In this document: piece after piece, positions 33,361 to 43,504 of the stretch
Layout of the letters: each line of letters starts with the position of its first letter
How positions within the stretch are numbered: the stretch's first letter is position 1
Notes under the pieces: model-generated
Database searches by the model: none
Told to the model about the DNA's origin: nothing
Seen by the model: only the letters and a program-made list of their open reading frames with translations
Translations under genes and position numbers: made by a program
From: a virus
Lineage: Duplodnaviria; Heunggongvirae; Uroviricota; Caudoviricetes
Virus record (IMG/VR): IMGVR_UViG_646862326_000012
Coordinates: 1-43,504 of that record
Direction: 5' to 3' (one strand)
DNA: 43,504 bases

Positions 33361-36300
33361 ATGGGTAAAGGCAGCAGTAAGGGGCATACCCCGCGCGAAG
33401 CGAAGGACAACCTGAAGTCCACGCAGTTGCTGAGTGTGATCGATGCCATCAGCGAAGGGCCGGTTGAAGGTCCGGTGGATGGGTTAAAAAGCGTGCTGCT
33501 GAACAGTACGCCGGTGCTGGACAGTGAGGGGAATACCAATATCTCCGGTGTCACGGTGGTGTTCCGGGCAGGTGAGCAGGAGCAGACACCGCCGGAGGGG
33601 TTTGAATCCTCCGGTTCCGAGACGGTGCTGGGTACGGAAGTGAAATATGACACGCCGATCACCCGCACCATTACGTCGGCAAACATCGACCGACTGCGCT
33701 TTACCTTCGGTGTGCAGGCACTGGTGGAAACCACTTCAAAGGGTGACCGGAATCCGTCGGAAGTCCGCCTGCTGGTTCAGATACAGCGTAACGGTGGCTG
33801 GGTGACGGAAAAAGACATCACCATTAAGGGCAAAACCACCTCGCAGTATCTGGCCTCGGTGGTGGTGGATAACCTGCCGCCGCGCCCGTTTAATATCCGG
33901 ATGCGCAGGATGACGCCGGACAGCACCACAGACCAGCTGCAGAACAAAACGCTCTGGTCGTCATACACCGAAATCATCGATGTGAAACAGTGCTACCCGA
34001 ACACGGCACTGGTCGGCGTGCAGGTGGATTCGGAGCAGTTCGGCAGCCAGCAGGTGAGCCGTAATTATCATCTTCGCGGGCGCATTCTGCAGGTGCCGTC
34101 GAATTATAACCCGCAGACGCGGCAATACAGCGGTATCTGGGACGGAACGTTAAAACCGGCATACAGCAACAACATGGCCTGGTGTCTGTGGGATATGCTG
34201 ACCCACCCGCGCTACGGCATGGGGAAACGTCTTGGTGCGGCAGATGTGGATAAATGGGCGCTGTATGTCATCGGCCAGAATTGCGACCAGTCAGTGCCGG
34301 ACGGCTTTGGCGGCACGGAGCCGCGCATCACCTGTAATGCCTGGCTGACCACACAGCGCAAGGCGTGGGATGTGCTCAGTGATTTCTGCTCGGCGATGCG
34401 CTGTATGCCGGTATGGAACGGGCAGACGCTGACGTTCGTGCAGGACCGACCGTCGGATAAGGTGTGGACCTATAACCGCAGTAATGTGGTGATGCCGGAT
34501 GATGGCGCGCCGTTCCGCTACAGCTTCAGCGCCCTGAAGGACCGCCATAATGCCGTTGAGGTGAACTGGATTGACCCGGACAACGGCTGGGAGACGGCGA
34601 CAGAGCTTGTGGAGGACACGCAGGCCATTGCCCGTTACGGTCGTAACGTCACGAAGATGGATGCCTTTGGCTGTACCAGTCGGGGGCAGGCACACCGCGC
34701 CGGGCTGTGGCTGATTAAAACAGAACTGCTGGAAACGCAGACCGTGGACTTCAGCGTGGGTGCAGAAGGGCTTCGCCATGTACCGGGCGATGTCATTGAA
34801 ATCTGCGATGATGACTATGCGGGTATCAGCACCGGCGGGCGCGTGCTGGCGGTGAACAGCCAGACGCGGACACTGACGCTCGACCGTGAAATCACGCTGC
34901 CATCCTCCGGCACCACGCTGATAAGCCTGGTTGACGGACAGGGGAATCCGGTCAGCGTGGAGGTCCAGTCCGTCACCGACGGCGTGAAGGTAAAAGTGAG
35001 CCGGGTTCCTGATGGCGTTGCCGAGTACAGCGTGTGGGGGCTGAAGCTGCCGACGCTGCGCCAGCGCCTGTTCCGCTGCGTGAGTATCCGTGAGAATGAC
35101 GACGGCACGTATGCCATCACCGCTGTGCAGCATGTGCCGGAGAAAGAGGCCATCGTGGATAACGGGGCGCACTTTGACGGCGACCAGAGCGGCACGGTGA
35201 ATGGTGTCACGCCGCCAGCAGTGCAGCACCTGACCGCAGAAGTCACCGCAGACAGCGGGGAATACCAGGTGCTGGCGCGCTGGGATACGCCGAAGGTGGT
35301 GAAGGGTGTGAGCTTTATGCTTCGCCTGACCGTGGCAGCGGATGACGGCAGTGAGCGGCTGGTCAGCACGGCCCGGACGACGGAAACCACATACCGATTC
35401 ACGCAACTGGCGCTGGGAAACTACAGGCTGACAGTCCGGGCGGTAAATGCGTGGGGACAGCAGGGCGATCCGGCGTCGGTATCGTTCCGGATTGCCGCAC
35501 CGTCAGCGCCGTCGCGGATTGAGCTGACGCCGGGCTATTTTCAGATCACCGCCACGCCGCATCTTGCCGTTTATGATCCGACGGTACAGTTTGAGTTCTG
35601 GTTCTCGGAAAAGCGGATTGCGGATATCAGGCAGGTTGAAACCACAGCCCGCTATCTTGGCACGGCGCTGTACTGGATAGCTGCCAGTATCAATATCAGG
35701 CCGGGCCATGATTATTATTTTTACGTTCGCAGTGTGAACACCGTTGGCAAATCGGCATTCGTGGAGGCTGTCGGTCGGGCGAGCGATGATGCGGAAGGTT
35801 ACCTGGATTTTTTCAAAGGCCAGATAACTGAATCCCATCTCGGCAAGGAGCTGCTGGAAAAAGTCGAGCTGACGGAGGATAACGCCAGCAAACTGGAGGA
35901 GTTTTCGAAAGAGTGGAAAGACGCCAACGATAAATGGAATGCCATGTGGGGCGTCAAAATTGAGCAGACCGAAGACGGCAGGCATTATGTCGCGGGGCTT
36001 GGCCTCAGCATGGAGGATACGGAGGAAGGCAAACTGAGCCAGTTCCTGGTTGCCGCTAACCGTATCGCGTTTATTGATCCGTCTAATGGCAACACAAGAC
36101 CAATGTTTGTTGGTCAGGGCGATCAGATATTCATGAACGACGTGTTCCTGAAACGCCTGACGGCTCCGACCATTACCAGCGGCGGTAATCCTCCGGCATT
36201 TTCCCTGACACCGGACGGGCGGCTGACGGCGAAAAATGCCGATATCAGCGGTAGCGTGAATGCGAACTCCGGGACGCTCAACAACGTCACGATTAACGAG

Positions 36301-36756
36301 AACTGTCGGGTTCTGGGAAAACTGTCCGCGAACCAGATTGAAGGCGATCTCGTTAAAACAGTGGGCAAAGCTTTCCCCCGGGACTCCCGTGCACCGGAGC
36401 GGTGGCCATCAGGGACCATTACCGTCAGGGTTTATGACGATCAGTCGTTTGACCGGCAAATTGTTATTCCAGCGGTGGCTTTCTGCGGTGCCAGACATGA
36501 GCGGGAGAATAGCGATACTTATTCGTCATGCCGCCTGATAGTGAAGAAAAACGGGGCTGAAATTTATAACCGAACGGCTCTGGATAATACTCTGATTTAC
36601 ACGGGTGTTATTGATATGCCTGCAGGCAGTGGCGTAATGACACTGGAGTTTTCTGTATCAGCATGGTGGGTAAATGGTTGGTATCCCACAGCAAGTATCA
36701 GCGATTTGCTGGTTGTTGTGATGAAGAAAGCCACTGCAGGCATCACGATTAGCTGA
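33361..36756 (+). CDS. J: Host specificity / central tail fibre protein gpJ
   Basis: 1131 aa; strong colinear similarity to lambda J over most of its length; the C-terminal approx. 150 aa appear divergent. Confidence 0.9.
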
Positions 36757-36823: not shown

Positions 36824-37423
36824 ATGCGTAAATTATGTGCTGTTATTCTGTCCGCAGTAGTCTGGCTGGTTGCCGCTGGTACGCCAGCGAGCGCAGCAGA
36901 GCATCAGTCCACACTAAGCGCCGGGTATCTTCAGACCCATACTGATATGCCAGGCAGCGATGACCTGAAGGGCATTAACGTGAAATACCGTTATGAATTT
37001 ACGGACACGCTGGGGCTGGTGACGTCATTCAGCTATGCAGGAGACAAGAATCGCCAGCTTACCCGTTACAGCGATACCCGCTGGCATGAAGATTCCGTTC
37101 GTAACCGCTGGTTCAGCGTGATGGCGGGGCCGTCTGTGCGCGTGAATGAATGGTTCAGCGCGTATGCGATCGCGGGTGTGGCTTACAGCCGTGTGTCGAC
37201 TTTTTCCGGGGATTATCTTCAGGTGACCGACAACAAGGGGGATACGCACGATGTGCTGACCGGAAGTGATGACGGTCGCCACAGCAACACGTCTCTGGCG
37301 TGGGGGGCTGGCGTGCAGTTTAACCCGACCGAATTCGTGGCCATTGATATTGCTTATGAAGGTTCCGGCAGTGGCGACTGGCGCACTGACGGTTTCATCG
37401 TGGGTGTCGGTTATAAATTCTGA
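36824..37423 (+). CDS. lom: Lom-like outer membrane beta-barrel protein (Ail/Lom/OmpX family)
   Basis: 199 aa; signal peptide (AAGTPASA); alternating amphipathic beta-strand pattern ending in ...VGVGYKF, typical of the Ail/Lom family; same position as lambda lom. Confidence 0.85.
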
Positions 37424-37481: not shown

Positions 37482-39845
37482 GTGGATATGGCAGCAGTAA
37501 AAATCTCAGGTGTGCTGAAAGATGGTGCGGGTAAACCAATACAGAACTGCACTATTCAACTGAAGGCAAAGCGTAACAGCACCACGGTACTGGTGAACAC
37601 GGTGGCCTCTGAAAATCCGGATGAAGCCGGGCGTTACAGCATGGATGTTGAGTATGGCCAGTACAGCGTCATCCTGCTGGTTGAAGGTTTTCCGCCTTCA
37701 CATGCCGGGACCATTACCGTCTATGAAGGCTCCAGACCAGGTACGCTGAATGATTTTCTCGGTGCCATGACGGAAGATGATGTCATGCCGGAGGCATTGC
37801 GTCGTTTTGAGGCAATGGTGGAAGAAGCGGCACGCAACGCCGAAGCCGCCTCTCAGAGCGCAGCGGCGGCAAAGAAATCCGAAACTGCAGCGGCATCATC
37901 GAAGAACGCGGCGAAAACCTCAGAAACGAATGCAGCTAACAGCGCACAGGCGGCAGCGACCTCACAGACTGCATCGGCAAACTCCGCGACAGCAGCCAAA
38001 AAATCAGAAACCAACGCGAAAAACAGTGAGACAGCCGCAAAGACGAGCGAAACCAACGCAAAGTCCAGCCAGACGGCAGCGAAAACAAGCGAAACGAATG
38101 CCAAAGCCAGTGAAACTGCGGCGAAAAGCAGTCAGGATGCAGCAGCCGAAAGCGAGAGTGCTGCAGCTGGTTCTGCGACTTCAGCAGCTGGATCAGCAAC
38201 TGCTGCGGCTAACAGCCAGAAAGCCGCGAAGACGAGCGAAACTAACGCAAAGTCCAGCCAGACGGCAGCGAAGACCAGCGAAACGAATGCCAAAGCCAGC
38301 GAAACTGCGGCGAAAAACAGTCAGGATGCAGCAGCCCAAAGCGAGAGTGCCGCAGCTGGTTCTGCAACAGCGGCAGCTAATAGCCAAAAAGCTGCAAAAA
38401 CCAGTGAAACTAACGCAAAGACGAGTGAAACAAAAGCAGCAGCCAGCGAGACAGAAGCAACGTCAGCCGCAACAAGAGCAGAGAATGCAGCCCGGATTGC
38501 AGAAGATGCCGCTGATCCTGCTTCTGTCCCTCCGCTTCCTGATATCTGGCTACCTTTGAATGATTCTCTGGAAGCGATAACAGGGTATGCCCCGGGCTAT
38601 AAAACAATAACCATCGGCAGTGATGAAATAACAATGCCTGTTAATGGCATATGCCAATTTAGCCGGGCTTCATCTGCAACGTATATTGATAAGTCCGGGC
38701 ATATTACCGTGGCAGGCAATAACGTTCCTCGTTTTGAAAAATATGGTTTGCTGATAGAGAATCAGCGAACAAACATGTTCGTAAATAGTTTTAATCCTGA
38801 TGCGTGGAATAAAAGCGGTGGTATATCTGTAACATCATCAACAGATGAATTTGAGTTTAAATATGGACGTTTCACAGTAGGAAGTGAGATAGCAGGAACG
38901 ACAACAGGGAGAAATATATGCACAGTTGCTGGTAATAAAGGCATAGATGTGACTGGCGATGATCAGTACAGTAAAGGTCCGTATGTTACCGCGTCGTTCA
39001 GGGTAAGAAGTGATCTCAATGTTCGCGCACGTATCCGTTTTGAACGGTATAACTCGGAAGGATACACTTTCCTTTGTGACGCCTATTTGTCATTACAGAC
39101 TCATGAACTACAAATTACGGGTGGTAATGCCCAGCTATTAACAGCAAACTTTGAAATCGACCCTGGTAGTGGATGGATATATTTTCAGGCAACACTGAAA
39201 TGTCTGCCAGAATGGGGAATGGTTGGTACGCAGCTGCAAATTGCAGCCGACAGAGCAGTGGGGGCTTTTGCAACAGGTGACTGGATAGAAGTAACCACCC
39301 CGCAATTCGAGTATGGTGCTTGTGCAACTTCCTTCATCATAACGACAACAGAGCCAGCGACTCGTGCATCAGATTTATGTAAATTTCCGCTGATGAAAAA
39401 TATGTATACCATGCCTTTTACGTTCATGGCGGAAGTCCATAAAAACTGGTTTATTTCTCATAATGCAGCACCGCGTGTCATTGATTCAGAAAATCACCAG
39501 TCCGGAGGCCCATTTATTATGGGGTTTGGTTCTTCTGGAACTATCAGTCAGGACGGTTATTCGTATTGCGATATAGGCGGGGCTAACCGACGTGTATATG
39601 AATCATGCGGAGTAAGGGATCTCGTTATGGGATTCAGGGTTAAGGCTGACGGCATGACATGCTCATTTGCAAATAAGCATATAAGCACTGAAACAAAAAC
39701 AGTATGGAAATATATTCGTGAAGCAGCCGTGATTCGTATCGGGGGGCAAACGACGACAGGATTACGACACCTTAATGGTCATATAAAAAACCTCCGTTTC
39801 TGGAACAGAGCATTGTCAGATACGCAGCTTAAGGAATACGTATAA
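37482..39845 (+). CDS. stf: Side tail fibre protein (Stf-like N-terminus, Ala/Ser/Thr-rich repeat collar, AT-rich C-terminal lectin-like domain)
   Basis: 787 aa. N-terminus MAVKISGVLKDGAGKPIQNCTIQLKA resembles lambda Stf. Central tandem repeats (AAKTSETNAKSSQTAAK...). C-terminus ends ...NLRFWNRALSDTQLKEYV, reminiscent of LamG/ConA-like lectin domains. Confidence 0.85.
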   Translation: MDMAAVKISGVLKDGAGKPIQNCTIQLKAKRNSTTVLVNTVASENPDEAGRYSMDVEYGQYSVILLVEGFPPSHAGTITVYEGSRPGTLNDFLGAMTEDDVMPEALRRFEAMVEEAARNAEAASQSAAAAKKSETAAASSKNAAKTSETNAANSAQAAATSQTASANSATAAKKSETNAKNSETAAKTSETNAKSSQTAAKTSETNAKASETAAKSSQDAAAESESAAAGSATSAAGSATAAANSQKAAKTSETNAKSSQTAAKTSETNAKASETAAKNSQDAAAQSESAAAGSATAAANSQKAAKTSETNAKTSETKAAASETEATSAATRAENAARIAEDAADPASVPPLPDIWLPLNDSLEAITGYAPGYKTITIGSDEITMPVNGICQFSRASSATYIDKSGHITVAGNNVPRFEKYGLLIENQRTNMFVNSFNPDAWNKSGGISVTSSTDEFEFKYGRFTVGSEIAGTTTGRNICTVAGNKGIDVTGDDQYSKGPYVTASFRVRSDLNVRARIRFERYNSEGYTFLCDAYLSLQTHELQITGGNAQLLTANFEIDPGSGWIYFQATLKCLPEWGMVGTQLQIAADRAVGAFATGDWIEVTTPQFEYGACATSFIITTTEPATRASDLCKFPLMKNMYTMPFTFMAEVHKNWFISHNAAPRVIDSENHQSGGPFIMGFGSSGTISQDGYSYCDIGGANRRVYESCGVRDLVMGFRVKADGMTCSFANKHISTETKTVWKYIREAAVIRIGGQTTTGLRHLNGHIKNLRFWNRALSDTQLKEYV
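38041..38369. repeat. In-frame tandem duplication (approx. 189-bp unit, two near-identical copies) inside the tail fibre gene
   Basis: 38041-38180 and 38230-38369 are near-identical (for example AGACGAGCGAAAC[C/T]AACGCAAAGTCCAGCCAGACGGCAGCGAA...); the 189-bp offset preserves the reading frame. Confidence 0.8.
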
Positions 39846-40114
39846 TGCGGGATATAACATTACGATTCGATAACAGAGAACAGTTTAACGCAATTGTATA
39901 TGACAGTGGCCTGTTCAGTCTTGAAGAAGAAAATGGGATTCTTGTTGATGTTATTGGTTGCATTATCGATTACGAGGAGCCAGAAAACGAAAGATGTACA
40001 GGCATTGATCGCGGTGGTTTTTTCGTAAACATGAGGATTGTTGATAGCAGTAAAAACATATCTTCTTTAATGCCTTTCATTACGACAGATCAGCATGTAA
40101 GGACATGGGCTTAA
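39845..40114 (+). CDS. Hypothetical protein (89 aa), possible fibre accessory/assembly factor
   Basis: TAATG overlap with the stf stop; AT-rich; no recognised motif. Confidence 0.45.
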   Translation: MRDITLRFDNREQFNAIVYDSGLFSLEEENGILVDVIGCIIDYEEPENERCTGIDRGGFFVNMRIVDSSKNISSLMPFITTDQHVRTWA

Positions 40115-40126
40115 TGGAGTAAGACA

Positions 40127-41167
40127 ATGGTTACAAAAACAGTAATTCCTGATGACATCAAAACGCTAAAATCGGATGTTAGTAAATTAAAAACCGATCA
40201 AGGAAACTACGCAACAAAATCTTATGTAGACAATAAAACAACATGGAATGGTTATTGCAATGTAATCTATGATCAAAAAACATTGCCAACAACTGGAACT
40301 ATATTCAGCGGTAAGCTGCATTTGTCAAATAAGACTGGTGAAACGGAAAACGCTTATAGTGACATATATACCAGAAAAAATATTGATGGTACTAAAGATA
40401 CAATGACGAGGATCGTCACACATAACGGGAAAAAAGGTATCTTTTGGGACTTTAGTGATCTTTACGGAGGAACTTTAATTTTTCCAGGCAGTGATGGTTA
40501 CCTTAAGATGGGGAACTGTCTCATGTCGTATGGTGTGCGGGGAAGTAACGCGCTTATTAAGTTTGATAATACAGACTCATTGCAGATCAAATATGCTAAT
40601 CACGGGTCGACCATGACACTAAACACGCAAGGTACGGCGTATTCTGGTGTGTCGACGTTATTATGGGGAAATTCCAGTCGTCCAGTTGTTTATGAAATTA
40701 GGGATGATGGCGGGCTTTTTTTGTTTTATGCACAAAGGAACCCAGATAAAACCTATCAGCTTGAGATAAACGGGCCATGCAAGGCTACATCATTCGACCA
40801 GGTGTCGGACAGAGATCTTAAAGAAAACATTCAGGTTATTGATAATGCCACTGAGCGCATCAGATTAATGAATGGGTATACTTACCGTCTCAAGTCTAAT
40901 GGTATGCCTTATGCTGGCGTTATTGCGCAAGAGGCACTTAATGCAATCCCTGAATCAGTTGGTAGCACAATAAAGTACAAGAGCGGGGACAATGGGTCTG
41001 ATGGAGAAGAGGGAGAAAGATACTATACCGTCGATTACTCAGGCGTAACGGGTTTGCTTGTTCAGGTAGCCAGAGAGTCAGACGACAGGATAACAGCACT
41101 GGAAGAAGAAAACGCAGAATTAAGACAAAGATTATCTGCAATTGAGGCGGCGCTTGCGTCTAAATAA
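40127..41167 (+). CDS. Tail fibre / tailspike-like protein with C-terminal S74 intramolecular chaperone (autoproteolytic) domain
   Basis: 346 aa. C-terminal SDRDLKENIQVIDNA...LMNGYTYRLKSNG...AGVIAQEA...YTVDYSGVTGLLVQ then coiled coil: the signature of the peptidase S74 / endosialidase chaperone domain. AT-rich. Confidence 0.7.
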   Translation: MVTKTVIPDDIKTLKSDVSKLKTDQGNYATKSYVDNKTTWNGYCNVIYDQKTLPTTGTIFSGKLHLSNKTGETENAYSDIYTRKNIDGTKDTMTRIVTHNGKKGIFWDFSDLYGGTLIFPGSDGYLKMGNCLMSYGVRGSNALIKFDNTDSLQIKYANHGSTMTLNTQGTAYSGVSTLLWGNSSRPVVYEIRDDGGLFLFYAQRNPDKTYQLEINGPCKATSFDQVSDRDLKENIQVIDNATERIRLMNGYTYRLKSNGMPYAGVIAQEALNAIPESVGSTIKYKSGDNGSDGEEGERYYTVDYSGVTGLLVQVARESDDRITALEEENAELRQRLSAIEAALASK

Positions 41168-41173
41168 TATTAA

Positions 41174-41194
41174 GGGGCCGAGCGCCCCGTTTTA
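41174..41194 (+). terminator. Hairpin plus T-run after the S74-domain fibre gene
   Basis: GGGGCCGAGCGCCCCG followed by TTTTATT. Confidence 0.45.
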
Positions 41195-41497
41195 TTGAGT
41201 AGGATGAAAATGGATATAACACCTTTCCTTCATGCGCTTTGTGCTGTGGCTGCGCAGCTACTGATTGGTCTTTTTACCGGGAACTGGGCTTACGGGGCGA
41301 TAGCCGGTTGTACGTTCTTCATTGCGCGTGAACACACCCAGGCAGAATATCGCTGGATTGAAATGTTCGGGCATGGCAAGCGAATGAATATGCCGTGGTG
41401 GGGCGGTTTTGATCCGCGCGCGTGGGATGTGGCAAGCCTGATGGATTTTGCTGTGCCGGTGGTGGCGTGTCTGCTGATCTGGCTGTTGATCCGTTAA
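41195..41497 (+). CDS. Hypothetical small membrane protein (100 aa)
   Basis: Two hydrophobic segments (LHALCAVAAQLLIGLF; FAVPVVACLLIWLLI); last rightward gene before the convergent RT module. Confidence 0.5.
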   Translation: MSRMKMDITPFLHALCAVAAQLLIGLFTGNWAYGAIAGCTFFIAREHTQAEYRWIEMFGHGKRMNMPWWGGFDPRAWDVASLMDFAVPVVACLLIWLLIR

Positions 41498-41604: not shown

Positions 41605-42981
41605 CTATGATATTCCTGAGATATCCTCTTCAAGCTCTTTTACTGATTTCGCAATTTTAAATTTAAACTTCCTCTCTATTTCACTATTGCTAAGTTTTTT
41701 TTCCTTCTCTTTACCTATCCACATAGAAACAAGTTCTCGTTTCTGAGATATATGTAAATTATCAAAGTTAGGTATGTATTTAAAAGTCTCCGCTCTACCT
41801 CTGCGGAGTTCATAGAAAGTTTTAATTAAAGACTTTGGTTTTATTTCTGATGAAAGGCCGAATCGGCGGATAAGATTATTGATAGTATGATTAACAGAGC
41901 GAAGTTGAGCTGTTGAGGTTATTTGTGAGAAGTACGATACCCATCCCAATCGTTTACCTTCAAACACACATCCCGTAATTCTGAGATTTAGTTTCCACTG
42001 ACAATATGCAACAGCTCGTTCTTTATCACGCTTACTTTTAGCTTGTAGTAGAGCGTGCCTGTATGCAGTAAAAATCCTTGCTAAAGATGACTCAAATCTA
42101 AGAATGCTCTCATGTTTTATCAATAATTCTCGATTTTCTATGTGGTATCCCAAAAAGTTAAAACTTTCATCCAAGCTGCCTACTTTGGATTTTGAGTTCT
42201 CTTCATTTAATGGATGTGGGTTTAAATTTAATGATTGAAGCTTATCAATGATATGAGAAGCTATTTTTGTTGCTTGATATTTTGGTGTTAAAATAAGAAT
42301 GTCATCAACGTATCGCATGTACCATATGTCATGCATTTTATTGATTTCATCATCAAAATTAGATAGTGATATTTCAGCTAAAATGTTTGATATCGCTAAT
42401 CCCTGAGGTACTCCTCTGGTATTATTCGGGATACCTTTGCTTCCTGTTGTTCCACTTACAGTAGGCACGATTAATGATGATGTTATTAACTGTCTAATTT
42501 CTTTTTTTCTAATTTTATTTTTTATTGCATTAATTATCAATTTATGTTCAATTGAAGGATAGAAACTTTTAAGATCTATTTTTGCATATTCAGCATAAAG
42601 ACTGCTGTTTAATGCTTCTTTCAATGAGTCAATTACTGTATGTGGTAGTTTTAATCTGGAGTTAGGATATATTTCCGTAAGGCATTCACAGAGAGCTCTA
42701 AGAGTAATTCTGTCCCTAGCAGTTGGTATGGAAATCTGTCTGGGTGTAGAGTTAGCGCCTTTAGATATTAATTTTTCTTTATATGCTGTAAATTTGTAAT
42801 TGCCAGAGTTAACCTTTTCAAAAATGAAAGCGATCTCATTTTTTATTGTCAAATCAAGTTTTGATGGGCGAATCCGATCTATGCCAATCGCTCCTGATTC
42901 TTTGATTTTTTCAGTGTATACTTTTAGAAGGTTTTTTTTCGAGAATGACTTTTTAAAAATTCTGCTTGCAGTCATAGTCAA
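41605..42981 (-). CDS. Reverse transcriptase (defence-associated / Abi- or retron-like RT) with approx. 200-aa C-terminal extension
   Basis: 458 aa, AT-rich. RT motifs readable in order: IPTARDRITLRAL (motif 1/2), IDLKSFYPSI (motif A aspartate), GVPQGLAISNILAEISL (motif B), YVDD at residues 224-227 (nt 42301-42312, motif C), FLGYHI (motif E-like). Unclassified C-terminal region. Confidence 0.85.
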   Translation of the reverse strand: MTMTASRIFKKSFSKKNLLKVYTEKIKESGAIGIDRIRPSKLDLTIKNEIAFIFEKVNSGNYKFTAYKEKLISKGANSTPRQISIPTARDRITLRALCECLTEIYPNSRLKLPHTVIDSLKEALNSSLYAEYAKIDLKSFYPSIEHKLIINAIKNKIRKKEIRQLITSSLIVPTVSGTTGSKGIPNNTRGVPQGLAISNILAEISLSNFDDEINKMHDIWYMRYVDDILILTPKYQATKIASHIIDKLQSLNLNPHPLNEENSKSKVGSLDESFNFLGYHIENRELLIKHESILRFESSLARIFTAYRHALLQAKSKRDKERAVAYCQWKLNLRITGCVFEGKRLGWVSYFSQITSTAQLRSVNHTINNLIRRFGLSSEIKPKSLIKTFYELRRGRAETFKYIPNFDNLHISQKRELVSMWIGKEKEKKLSNSEIERKFKFKIAKSVKELEEDISGIS

Positions 42982-43504
42982 TCCAAAGATATATTAATGG
43001 GAGTATATAAAGGGCGGCAGTAGTAAATATTCGAAGTAATATCCATAAAATAACAATTATTTTTTCTTTTTGTGTGGGGATCCTCGTCGTAAGTCCAACT
43101 TGAGTTACCCTTGAAATTTTATCATCTATGTCACGGTGATTCTCAACCTCATTGAGCAAATTAAAATATTTTTCTTTCTGTTCAAGAGTTAACTGTTGAC
43201 TGGTGGTAATGTCAAAATAGAGTCGCTGTAGTGCAATATAATTCCTTCTCATGGCTATTGCTCGACCACGAAAATCTAGGTTAGATACGATCAGCGAAAT
43301 ACCCAGTAGGGCCACCGAAAGTATTGCCGCAACGATATCTGTGTTATCTCCTAGAACTTTTGGAAATCGCAACGTTACAATTGAAAGTACCGCACTCAAT
43401 ATAGCATACCAAACGAGGATAAATTGAGAGTGCTTTTCAAGCCATTCTAGTCGATGGTGCGCTTGGATACGGGCTTTATATGTAAACCAAATATTGTCAT
43501 GCAT
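42953..43504 (-). CDS. Multi-pass membrane protein upstream of and overlapping the RT (possibly truncated at the window edge)
   Basis: At least 183 aa, with 3-4 predicted TM helices (FILVWYAILSAVLSIVTL; IVAAILSVALLGISLIVS; IIVILWILLRIFTTAALYILPLIYLWI). Its 3' end overlaps the RT start by 29 nt, so co-transcription is likely. The ORF reaches the last base of the window, so the true start may lie beyond it. Confidence 0.6.
   Translation of the reverse strand: MHDNIWFTYKARIQAHHRLEWLEKHSQFILVWYAILSAVLSIVTLRFPKVLGDNTDIVAAILSVALLGISLIVSNLDFRGRAIAMRRNYIALQRLYFDITTSQQLTLEQKEKYFNLLNEVENHRDIDDKISRVTQVGLTTRIPTQKEKIIVILWILLRIFTTAALYILPLIYLWIDYDCKQNF

Follow-up and report, generated by a model that had tools for sequence, protein, structure and literature searches.

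The 43,504-nucleotide window analysed here (positions 1 to 43,504 of IMG/VR virus record IMGVR_UViG_646862326_000012) belongs to a lambdoid phage and carries, downstream of its tail fibre gene stf, two intact open reading frames (ORFs), orf89 and orf346, encoding proteins of 89 and 346 residues. By sequence, the last ~440 residues of Stf together with orf89 and orf346 constitute a single low-GC cassette which is horizontally mobile and which would specify a two-part side fibre. In the arrangement that we favour, with a probability of roughly 0.6, Stf would form the proximal segment with a lectin-like end, orf346 would be an exchangeable distal subunit docking by its N-terminal peptide, and orf89 would act as a partner of the Stf C-terminal domain. 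An earlier first-pass annotation of the same DNA had described the two ORFs as they are found here, and had proposed that orf346 is a second receptor-binding protein; its S74 domain, a fibre motif in its body and its cassette context bear this out. The similarity data likewise identify orf346 as an ordinary member of a widespread E. coli phage fibre cassette and no oddity of one prophage.

orf346 and its exchangeable body

The Pfam model Peptidase_S74 (PF13884) matches orf346 with an E value of 2.3e-12 (47.4 bits versus a cut-off of 22), the match extending over residues 227-278 and profile positions 1-57 of 58. The two strings quoted in the first-pass annotation in support of this domain are real: the first residue of SDRDLK is 227 and that of GVIAQEA is 264. 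When 48 homologues are aligned, S227, D228 and K232 do not vary, and the domain opens with the dyad spacing S-x-x-x-x-K; the predicted self-cleavage site lies immediately before S227. The part of the protein preceding this residue comprises 226 residues (~25 kDa), in agreement with the earlier estimate of about 220, and is unusually short for a mature S74-type protein. A helical C-terminus had also been anticipated, and an AlphaFold2 model places a helix at residues 304-344; all structure models built in this analysis are of monomers. The gene is AT-rich as described, with a GC content of 0.405 compared with 0.497 for the window and a value of 0.349 in codons 1-130.

The body of orf346 has the character of a fibre. 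Beta domains are modelled at residues 58-118 and 150-214 (AlphaFold2, pLDDT 73-93), and residues ~178-222 contain the fibre motif WG..SRPVV.E......F.FYAQRN.......L.ING. Through the core of this motif (WG..SRPVV.E...FYAQRN...ING) a 48-sequence orf346 profile matches T4 gp34 (4uxe, 5nxf; E values of 6e-8 to about 1e-7); the same profile matches the C-terminal region of phage S16 gp37 (6f45, E 3e-11) and the MyRF ICA domain (7dc3, E 3e-5). The whole protein matches PHROG 4563 ('tail fiber protein') at 346 of 346 positions with an E value of 1e-199, and PHROG 6578 and PHROG 5668 are long single-chain fibres which end in an orf346-type body and chaperone. The ratio dN/dS against six homologues is 0.08-0.21 overall, and 0.06-0.18 for the body when measured against homologues with unsaturated synonymous changes; clusters of homologues of exactly 346 residues hold up to 2132 member sequences. 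On these comparisons orf346 is a functional gene under purifying selection, and its product is a genuine receptor-binding fibre protein, complete and ending in an S74 intramolecular chaperone.

The most constant part of the distal protein outside the chaperone appears to be its N-terminus. orf346 begins MVTKTVIPDDIKTLK, matching a motif, M-x-T-x-T-x-I-P-x-D-I-x-x-L-K, which is common to distal proteins whose identity elsewhere is only 23-40%; AlphaFold2 predicts a helix at residues 9-28. In the distal proteins this N-motif is followed by a variable number of heptad-like repeats, then by a variable body and finally by S74, the last being present in every distal type scanned with Pfam, namely those of 346, 224/227 and 574 residues (E values of 7e-6 and 2e-4 in the short proteins of 227 and 224 residues, respectively). 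The N-motif was matched in 99 phage records, and in all four of the further records sampled it lies directly after a gene of 85-93 codons which itself follows a tail fibre gene.

The body, meanwhile, is exchanged. Stf C-domains and orf89 proteins that are 99% identical are paired with either the 346-residue distal type or a 227-residue type of only 24% identity, whilst in phage JenP1 the Stf C-domain and orf89 are 50% and 30% identical to those of the window, yet the distal bodies share 90% identity. In a set of 37 distinct cassettes, the distal body varies almost independently of the rest of the cassette (r 0.34-0.35). Joints of DNA recombination, identified against Tritos and JenP1, lie at 40108 and 40163, within or beside the conserved N-motif. 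The alignments therefore identify the N-terminal peptide as the constant plug of an exchangeable distal module. The first-pass annotation had reported no obvious attachment domain at the N-terminus; this is contradicted by a conserved peptide of ~18 residues with its helix, constant while the bodies swap.

The mobile cassette and its proximal fibre

The borders of the cassette are marked by base composition and by breaks in homology. GC content falls from 0.543 in the Stf stalk to 0.435 in the Stf C-domain, 0.381 in orf89 and 0.405 in orf346, and stands at 0.528 in the following ORF. DNA homology with phage lambda stf stops near 37840 and that with other lambdoid stf genes (PhiR46_1, ev207) at ~38378. 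The GC drop and the breaks in DNA homology thus bracket the cassette at 38378/38532-41170, and a hairpin directly downstream of the orf346 stop codon is its right edge, GC being back to 0.53 in the ORF which follows. Within the cassette, direct reading of the sequence shows that the stf stop overlaps the orf89 start as TAATG, an arrangement by which orf89 is evidently translationally coupled to stf.

The same order of fibre gene, ~90-residue gene and N-motif-S74 gene recurs in unrelated phages. Among lambdoids it is found in the window, Tritos, PhiR47_1, PhiR11_1 and PhiR49_1; a literature search on the ECOR prophage records (PhiR47_1 and relatives) found no paper. JenP1, a virulent Nonagvirus with a distal protein ~90% identical to orf346, also has this gene order, as do the Seuratvirus VogelGryff, T1-like phages and contigs (L006, L008, swan01) and T5-like phages (L009, IrisVonRoten, also called Bas32, and AKFV33). 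The Dhillonvirus KarlBarth has the three-gene order with the distal gene annotated as two ORFs, and the record of the Dhillonvirus rolling stops at the distal start. In bacterial genomes, the segment 39400-41600 is 100% identical in E. coli N1, N21 and N44, is present at a coverage of at least 80% in 83 of 5426 complete E. coli genomes, and is partly matched in 1909 of them.

Unrelated at their N-termini, the proximal fibres of these lineages become alignable from the motif PLPD[VI]W[IL]P[FL]NDSL onwards, for ~440 residues to the C-terminus. Their anchors differ by lineage: phage_tail_N in the lambdoids and Queuovirinae, an LtfC-binding end in the T5-like phages and another type in the T1-like phages. 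The Stf anchor of the window also matches PDB 9e7m chain Ta ('Tail fiber protein', E 1.3e-49), and by these matches it is part of the lambdoid backbone, outside the mobile cassette. Between anchor and C-domain lies a stalk with repeat periods of 21, 42 and 189 nucleotides, the unit of 21 nucleotides equalling 7 residues. Repeat number varies between aligned lineages, so that stalk length is probably variable. The 189-nucleotide stalk segment is present in ~2 copies of 92% identity, with an AT skew of up to 0.6.

Residues 351-787 of Stf, with the domain limits PLPDVWIPFNDSL and RNFRIWHKALTD, align throughout with seven other cassettes at 35-52% identity, in an alignment which covers proximal fibres of lambdoid, Nonagvirus, Seuratvirus, T1-like and T5-like phages. 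Of 72 invariant columns in the eight sequences, 34 fall within the first 81 residues. The domain matches the NCBIfam model GTA_spike_fiber (E 1.7e-12), and its profile matches Rcc01080, the head-spike fibre of the gene transfer agent (GTA) of Rhodobacter capsulatus, RcGTA (PDB 6TB9, E 2e-13); a weak Laminin_G_3 signal (E 2e-4, below the Pfam cut-off) was seen at the extreme C-terminus of one relative. The C-terminal end of Stf thus appears to be lectin-like and homologous with the fibre of the GTA head spike. Rcc01080 binds capsular polysaccharide (PMC10218006). By this homology an alphaproteobacterial GTA head decoration and the tip of an enterobacterial tail fibre would share a capsule-binding module, which renders plausible the dual specificity that the first-pass annotation had suggested for the fibre.

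The proposed fibre, orf89 and the alternatives

In the proposed fibre, Stf would be anchored on the lambdoid tail tip via its own N-terminal domain. orf346 would trimerise from its C-terminus, guided by the S74 intramolecular chaperone, which would then excise itself at S227 by means of the S227/K232 dyad. The mature trimer, of 226 residues per chain, would be docked via its N-terminal peptide and helix on the conserved start of the Stf C-terminal region, so as to produce on the virion a side fibre of two segments that offers two candidate sites for glycan binding. Since orf346 is always found in the three-gene cassette, across unrelated phage lineages, it very probably rides on the upstream Stf. 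Furthermore, LtfA of phage DT57C fuses proximal and distal parts, suggesting that the distal protein continues the proximal shaft.

The contribution of orf89 is less apparent from its sequence. It matches PHROG 1361 (annotated as of unknown function) with an E value of 1e-30, is acidic (pI 4.4) and has relatives which are all of 88-93 residues. Across 10 cassettes M1, D3, F8, D35, I37, G38, G58, N62, R64, R86 and W88 are invariant. As a single query in a word-indexed homologue search orf89 returned only four fragments; a profile of 10 sequences found 344 relatives, and a relative is present in 194 phage records. An exhaustive profile search of 1.84 billion representatives gave 97 relatives at E values of 0.001 or below. 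No match for orf89 was found in Pfam, NCBIfam or PDB, and none of the small protein in a search of one genome per bacterial species, the back-translated patterns of which were strict, so that the result carries little weight. Its AlphaFold2 model (pLDDT 72.9) has a strand, a helix, two strands and helices, and resembles generic alpha/beta domains only. Two phages of ~137 kb, CarlMeissner and MiataMamis (H253 and H254), have weak relatives, 30-31% identical over ~70 residues, which adjoin lateral tail fibre genes; the family may therefore reach beyond siphoviruses.

The relationship of orf89 to lambda Tfa requires some qualification. In the first-pass annotation orf346 was said to stand in place of tfa. 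No Tfa-type match to Pfam or NCBIfam was found among the scanned ORFs downstream of stf (orf89, orf346, the 100-residue ORF, the reverse transcriptase and the SLATT ORF), and no similarity of orf89 to the Tfa-type (Caudo_TAP) chaperones was detected with these libraries; the absence of tfa is thus upheld. It is orf89, however, which holds the tfa position, orf346 being an extra gene. Pairwise identities of orf89 follow those of the Stf C-domain (r 0.93) far more closely than those of the distal body (r 0.35). Moreover, orf89 persists without a distal gene in several settings. The isolated lambdoid mEp460_4F5 has the fibre gene, the small gene and then the backbone ORF. In about 20 IMG/VR prophages of about 52-57 kb (L041-L059) the small gene, encoding 88 residues, is the last phage gene and follows a fibre of 591-605 residues which starts MIYTTGTIAVSG and has the C-domain found in the window; the host genes beyond it we take to be zntB and dbpA, with an integrase in others. 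A P2-like prophage locus (L066) has the fibre and the small gene but no distal gene, the N-terminus of the fibre presumably resembling that of P2 gpH. A relative of the L041-L059 group, L068, encodes a fibre of 1325 residues, the small gene and a 500-residue S74 protein which lacks the N-motif. Because orf89 tracks the Stf C-domain and is retained where there is no distal gene, its function is more likely to be that of a partner or assembly factor for that domain than that of a dedicated adaptor. The simplest reading of its Tfa-like position and coupling is that orf89 is most likely an assembly factor for this domain, equivalent in both respects to lambda Tfa.

Nevertheless, orf89 may be a component of the fibre joint. 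As a structural adaptor it would remain in the virion as a knee or socket bridging Stf and the N-terminus of orf346, much as the first-pass annotation had imagined. This is the best of the alternatives, albeit an unlikely one. In all cassettes seen the gene separates the two fibre genes, and there are precedents for a small protein at the joint of a fibre, T4 gp35 joining gp34 to gp36/37. Nine of the 97 relatives are giant proteins with PKD repeats (P0258, P0271, P0282 and P0288 among them), each repeat being weakly matched and the similarity significant only when summed, to whole-protein E values down to 5e-15; hhalign gave 79% probability to a match of the orf89 profile with PKD repeats, these having been picked solely by their WGDG motif. 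If real, such repeated similarity would fit a structural beta-sandwich better than a chaperone, and orf89 would be a free-standing Ig-like clamp. Pfam PKD models, however, match none of 66 members of the family and the alpha/beta AlphaFold2 model disagrees; the PKD-like signal is recorded here as unexplained. An adaptor is also hard to reconcile with the retention of orf89 where there is nothing to bridge, with sequence variation that tracks the Stf C-domain rather than the distal protein, and with the constancy of the distal N-motif even where orf89 has diverged to 30% identity. The balance of this evidence leans against docking of orf346 through orf89. A broader form of the idea, in which the PHROG 1361 protein is a new joint component forming, with the first ~40 residues of the Stf C-domain, a universal socket for any S74 distal fibre bearing the 15-residue plug, is similarly doubtful. 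If this were true, siphovirus lineages, and possibly also myoviruses of the rV5-like and P2-like types, could exchange distal fibres with no need to re-adapt the tail.

It is improbable that orf346 is an independent short fibre on the tail tip or tube. In favour of this, orf346 is encoded separately and has a ribosome-binding site of its own, and some phages do have several independently anchored receptor-binding proteins. The N-peptide, however, is common to lambdoid, T1-like, Dhillonvirus, Queuovirinae and T5-like phages despite their differing tail tips, and its only constant neighbours are an Stf-type C-domain and the ~90-residue gene. The in-line fusion of the distal equivalent to the proximal fibre in DT57C likewise argues for attachment to Stf. 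Less probable still is a role for orf346 as a chaperone acting in trans on Stf rather than as a fibre subunit. Several homologues (in ESCO3, JK16, VogelGryff and KurtStettler) are labelled 'endosialidase chaperone' or 'putative lateral tail fiber chaperone', but these labels derive from the name of the Pfam domain. Such a role would leave unaccounted for a beta-rich body of ~180 residues which has the T4 gp34 fibre motif, is under purifying selection and is swapped in the manner of a receptor-binding domain; body and chaperone together also form the C-terminus of the long single-chain fibres mentioned above, and Stf-type fibres occur without orf346. Known S74 chaperones act in cis, as is established for those of K1F endosialidase and T5 pb1. 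Least probable of all is that orf346 is an unused, decaying remnant of an older, longer fibre gene: broken relatives and long single-chain fibres with an orf346-type C-terminus exist, but the ORF is intact and full length with a low dN/dS, its clusters of 346-residue homologues are large, and it shares ~90% identity with its counterpart in JenP1, a virulent phage, with start and N-motif conserved.

Several observations weigh against the two-part fibre with orf89 as partner of the Stf C-domain. The S74 region is poorly scored in the AlphaFold2 monomer model (pLDDT 42-66). The correlation between orf89 and the Stf C-domain is confounded by their linkage, the genes being adjacent and the recombination joint lying after orf89, and near-identical E. 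coli prophages dominate the set of loci sampled. Furthermore, a frameshift interrupts the distal gene of the isolated phage PhiR47_1 (L001 5428-6468, 294 residues) and that of VSe12, and in prophages L038/L039 (4270-4415) it is deleted, its last ~37 codons remaining after orf89. orf346 is thus dispensable in some relatives and may therefore matter only on certain hosts.

Coordinates of the genes and other features of the fibre locus (positions in the window)
Feature	Position	Strand	Remarks
J	33361-36756		upstream of stf
lom	36824-37423		between J and stf
stf	37482-39845	+	787 residues
Stf N-terminal anchor	37494-37883	+	residues 5-134; Pfam phage_tail_N, E 8e-67
Stf stalk	37988-38460	+	Ala/Ser/Thr-rich heptad repeats, AKTSETN-like; Tandem Repeats Finder
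Stf C-terminal domain	38532-39842	+	residues 351-787; first cassette element; starts PLPDIWLPLNDSL, ends ...LRFWNRALSDTQLKEYV
GTA head-spike fibre-like domain	38751-39368	+	Stf residues 424-629, inside the C-terminal domain
orf89	39845-40114	+	second cassette element; ~10 kDa, PHROG 1361
Shine-Dalgarno-like GGAG box	40116-40119	+	7 nucleotides before the orf346 ATG; direct sequence reading
orf346	40127-41167	+	distal gene, 346 residues
orf346 N-terminal docking signature (putative)	40127-40210	+	residues 1-18 are MVTKTVIPDDIKTLKSDV
orf346 variable beta-rich body	40259-40804	+	residues ~45-226; presumed receptor-binding part of the mature protein
orf346 S74 intramolecular chaperone	40805-41164	+	residues 227-346; S227/K232 dyad; Pfam core 227-278
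GC-rich hairpin	41174-41188	+	directly 3' of the orf346 stop; terminator-like scan

Beyond the cassette, positions 41195-41497 (plus strand, GC 0.53) encode a hydrophobic protein of 100 residues, matching PHROG 1443 (function unknown), which adjoins the fibre module. ORFs of this PHROG are kept in many lambdoids with other fibre types (phage 21, lambda variants, mEp460_4F5) and in the P2-like locus L066, a distribution which places the ORF in the backbone, outside the cassette. The right prophage end (41605-43504, minus strand, GC 0.33) carries a defence-type gene pair. The first gene encodes a reverse transcriptase of 458 residues (PADLOC RT_UG17, E 6e-159; Pfam RVT_1) and the second, which overlaps it and extends to the last base of the window, a 183-residue protein with two transmembrane segments of the SLATT_5 / 'RTasSLATT' type (E 8e-57).

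Significance and comparison with known fibres

The types of O-antigen or capsule through which a phage can pass are determined by its side fibres. The cassette would represent a natural plug and socket, in which the distal S74 protein is replaceable at a fixed 15-residue junction whilst the proximal lectin-like domain is retained. This could be of use in the host-range engineering of lambda-type delivery particles, and in the prediction of prophage host range, given the number of E. coli genomes with at least a partial match. The remaining interest, which is modest, lies in the role of the ~90-residue protein, which no library names although a relative is present in 194 phage records, and in the structure of the joint.

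Multi-protein lateral fibres have been noted before in siphoviruses (PMC8594841, PMC4728585), and the present finding therefore joins a known kind. Described systems offer both parallels and differences. Lambda Stf-Tfa shares with the window the tail-tip anchor domain and a small gene coupled to the stf stop; in the window, by contrast, the C-terminus of Stf is another domain, a third gene is present and orf89 lies outside the Tfa family. In RcGTA, residues 45-279 of Rcc01080 align with positions 43-283 of the Stf C-domain profile. Rcc01080 is located on the head spike, however, whereas the domain of the window stands at the end of a tail fibre, where the GTA-like part is followed by a further ~150 residues weakly resembling concanavalin A and laminin G lectins. 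K1F endosialidase, T5 pb1 and the MyRF ICA have, like orf346, a C-terminal Ser-x4-Lys dyad followed by a helical region. Compared with these S74 proteins the mature part of orf346 is unusually short, and its autoproteolysis is predicted.

The branched fibres of phages DT57C and DT571/2 are made of LtfA and LtfB, each of which gives its own host specificity (PMC4728585, PMC10713586). They resemble the proposed fibre in that a second, S74-bearing fibre protein rides on a first which is anchored to the tail. The docking elements differ, however. The N-terminus of LtfB (MSRPLMPKSGAMAPYVV...) is without the orf346 N-motif, and LtfA has neither the GTA-spike-like C-domain nor a small gene after it, both of which are present in the window. 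Membership of the DT57C type, in which an LtfB-type protein with a phiEco32 gp15-like N-terminus sits on mid-shaft LtfA, was consequently rejected. The arrangement in the window looks serial with a side domain, whereas that of DT57C branches from mid-shaft. The suggestion of a branched fibre in the first-pass annotation is thus not sustained in this form, whilst its companion, dual specificity, is plausible. Residues 1-200 of DT57C LtfA (L074 2980-6210, 1076 residues) align with the proximal fibres of IrisVonRoten and AKFV33, and residues 508-1073 with the separate distal proteins of these phages at 45% identity. Split and fused versions of one fibre thus coexist among T5-like phages, LtfA being a natural fusion.

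The closest counterparts are Gp22-Gp23-Gp24 of IrisVonRoten (Bas32) and ORF137-136-135 of AKFV33, which have the three conserved elements of the window in an identical gene order. Their small proteins are of 88-92 residues, and their distal proteins start M-x-T-x-T-x-I-P-x-D-I-T-K-L-K and have an S74 end of the type found here. Gp22 and Gp24 of IrisVonRoten have been modelled as one fibre, with a proximal protein bearing a C-terminal domain, placed at the joint, which the BASEL authors call 'galectin-like', and a distal protein bearing the chaperone domain (10.1101/2024.09.12.612763). In position this domain corresponds to the end of the Stf C-domain at which the weak Laminin_G_3 signal was seen in a relative. 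The published fibre of proximal and distal Bas32 proteins is itself a prediction, and no discussion of the small protein of this locus was found in the passages of it consulted. In AKFV33 the proximal protein ORF137 has been detected in virions by mass spectrometry (PMC3326045). The anchors are different, being phage_tail_N of the lambdoid type in the window and the T5 LtfC-binding end in Bas32 and AKFV33. Outside the N-motif orf346 is only 25% identical to the distal proteins of the latter phages, and it is short (226 mature residues), lacking the Gp12-like first receptor-binding domain of their 'T-shaped' proteins. By gene order and conserved elements, then, the cassette of the window is of the IrisVonRoten Gp22-24 and AKFV33 ORF137-135 kind, grafted on a lambdoid Stf anchor and provided with a short distal protein.

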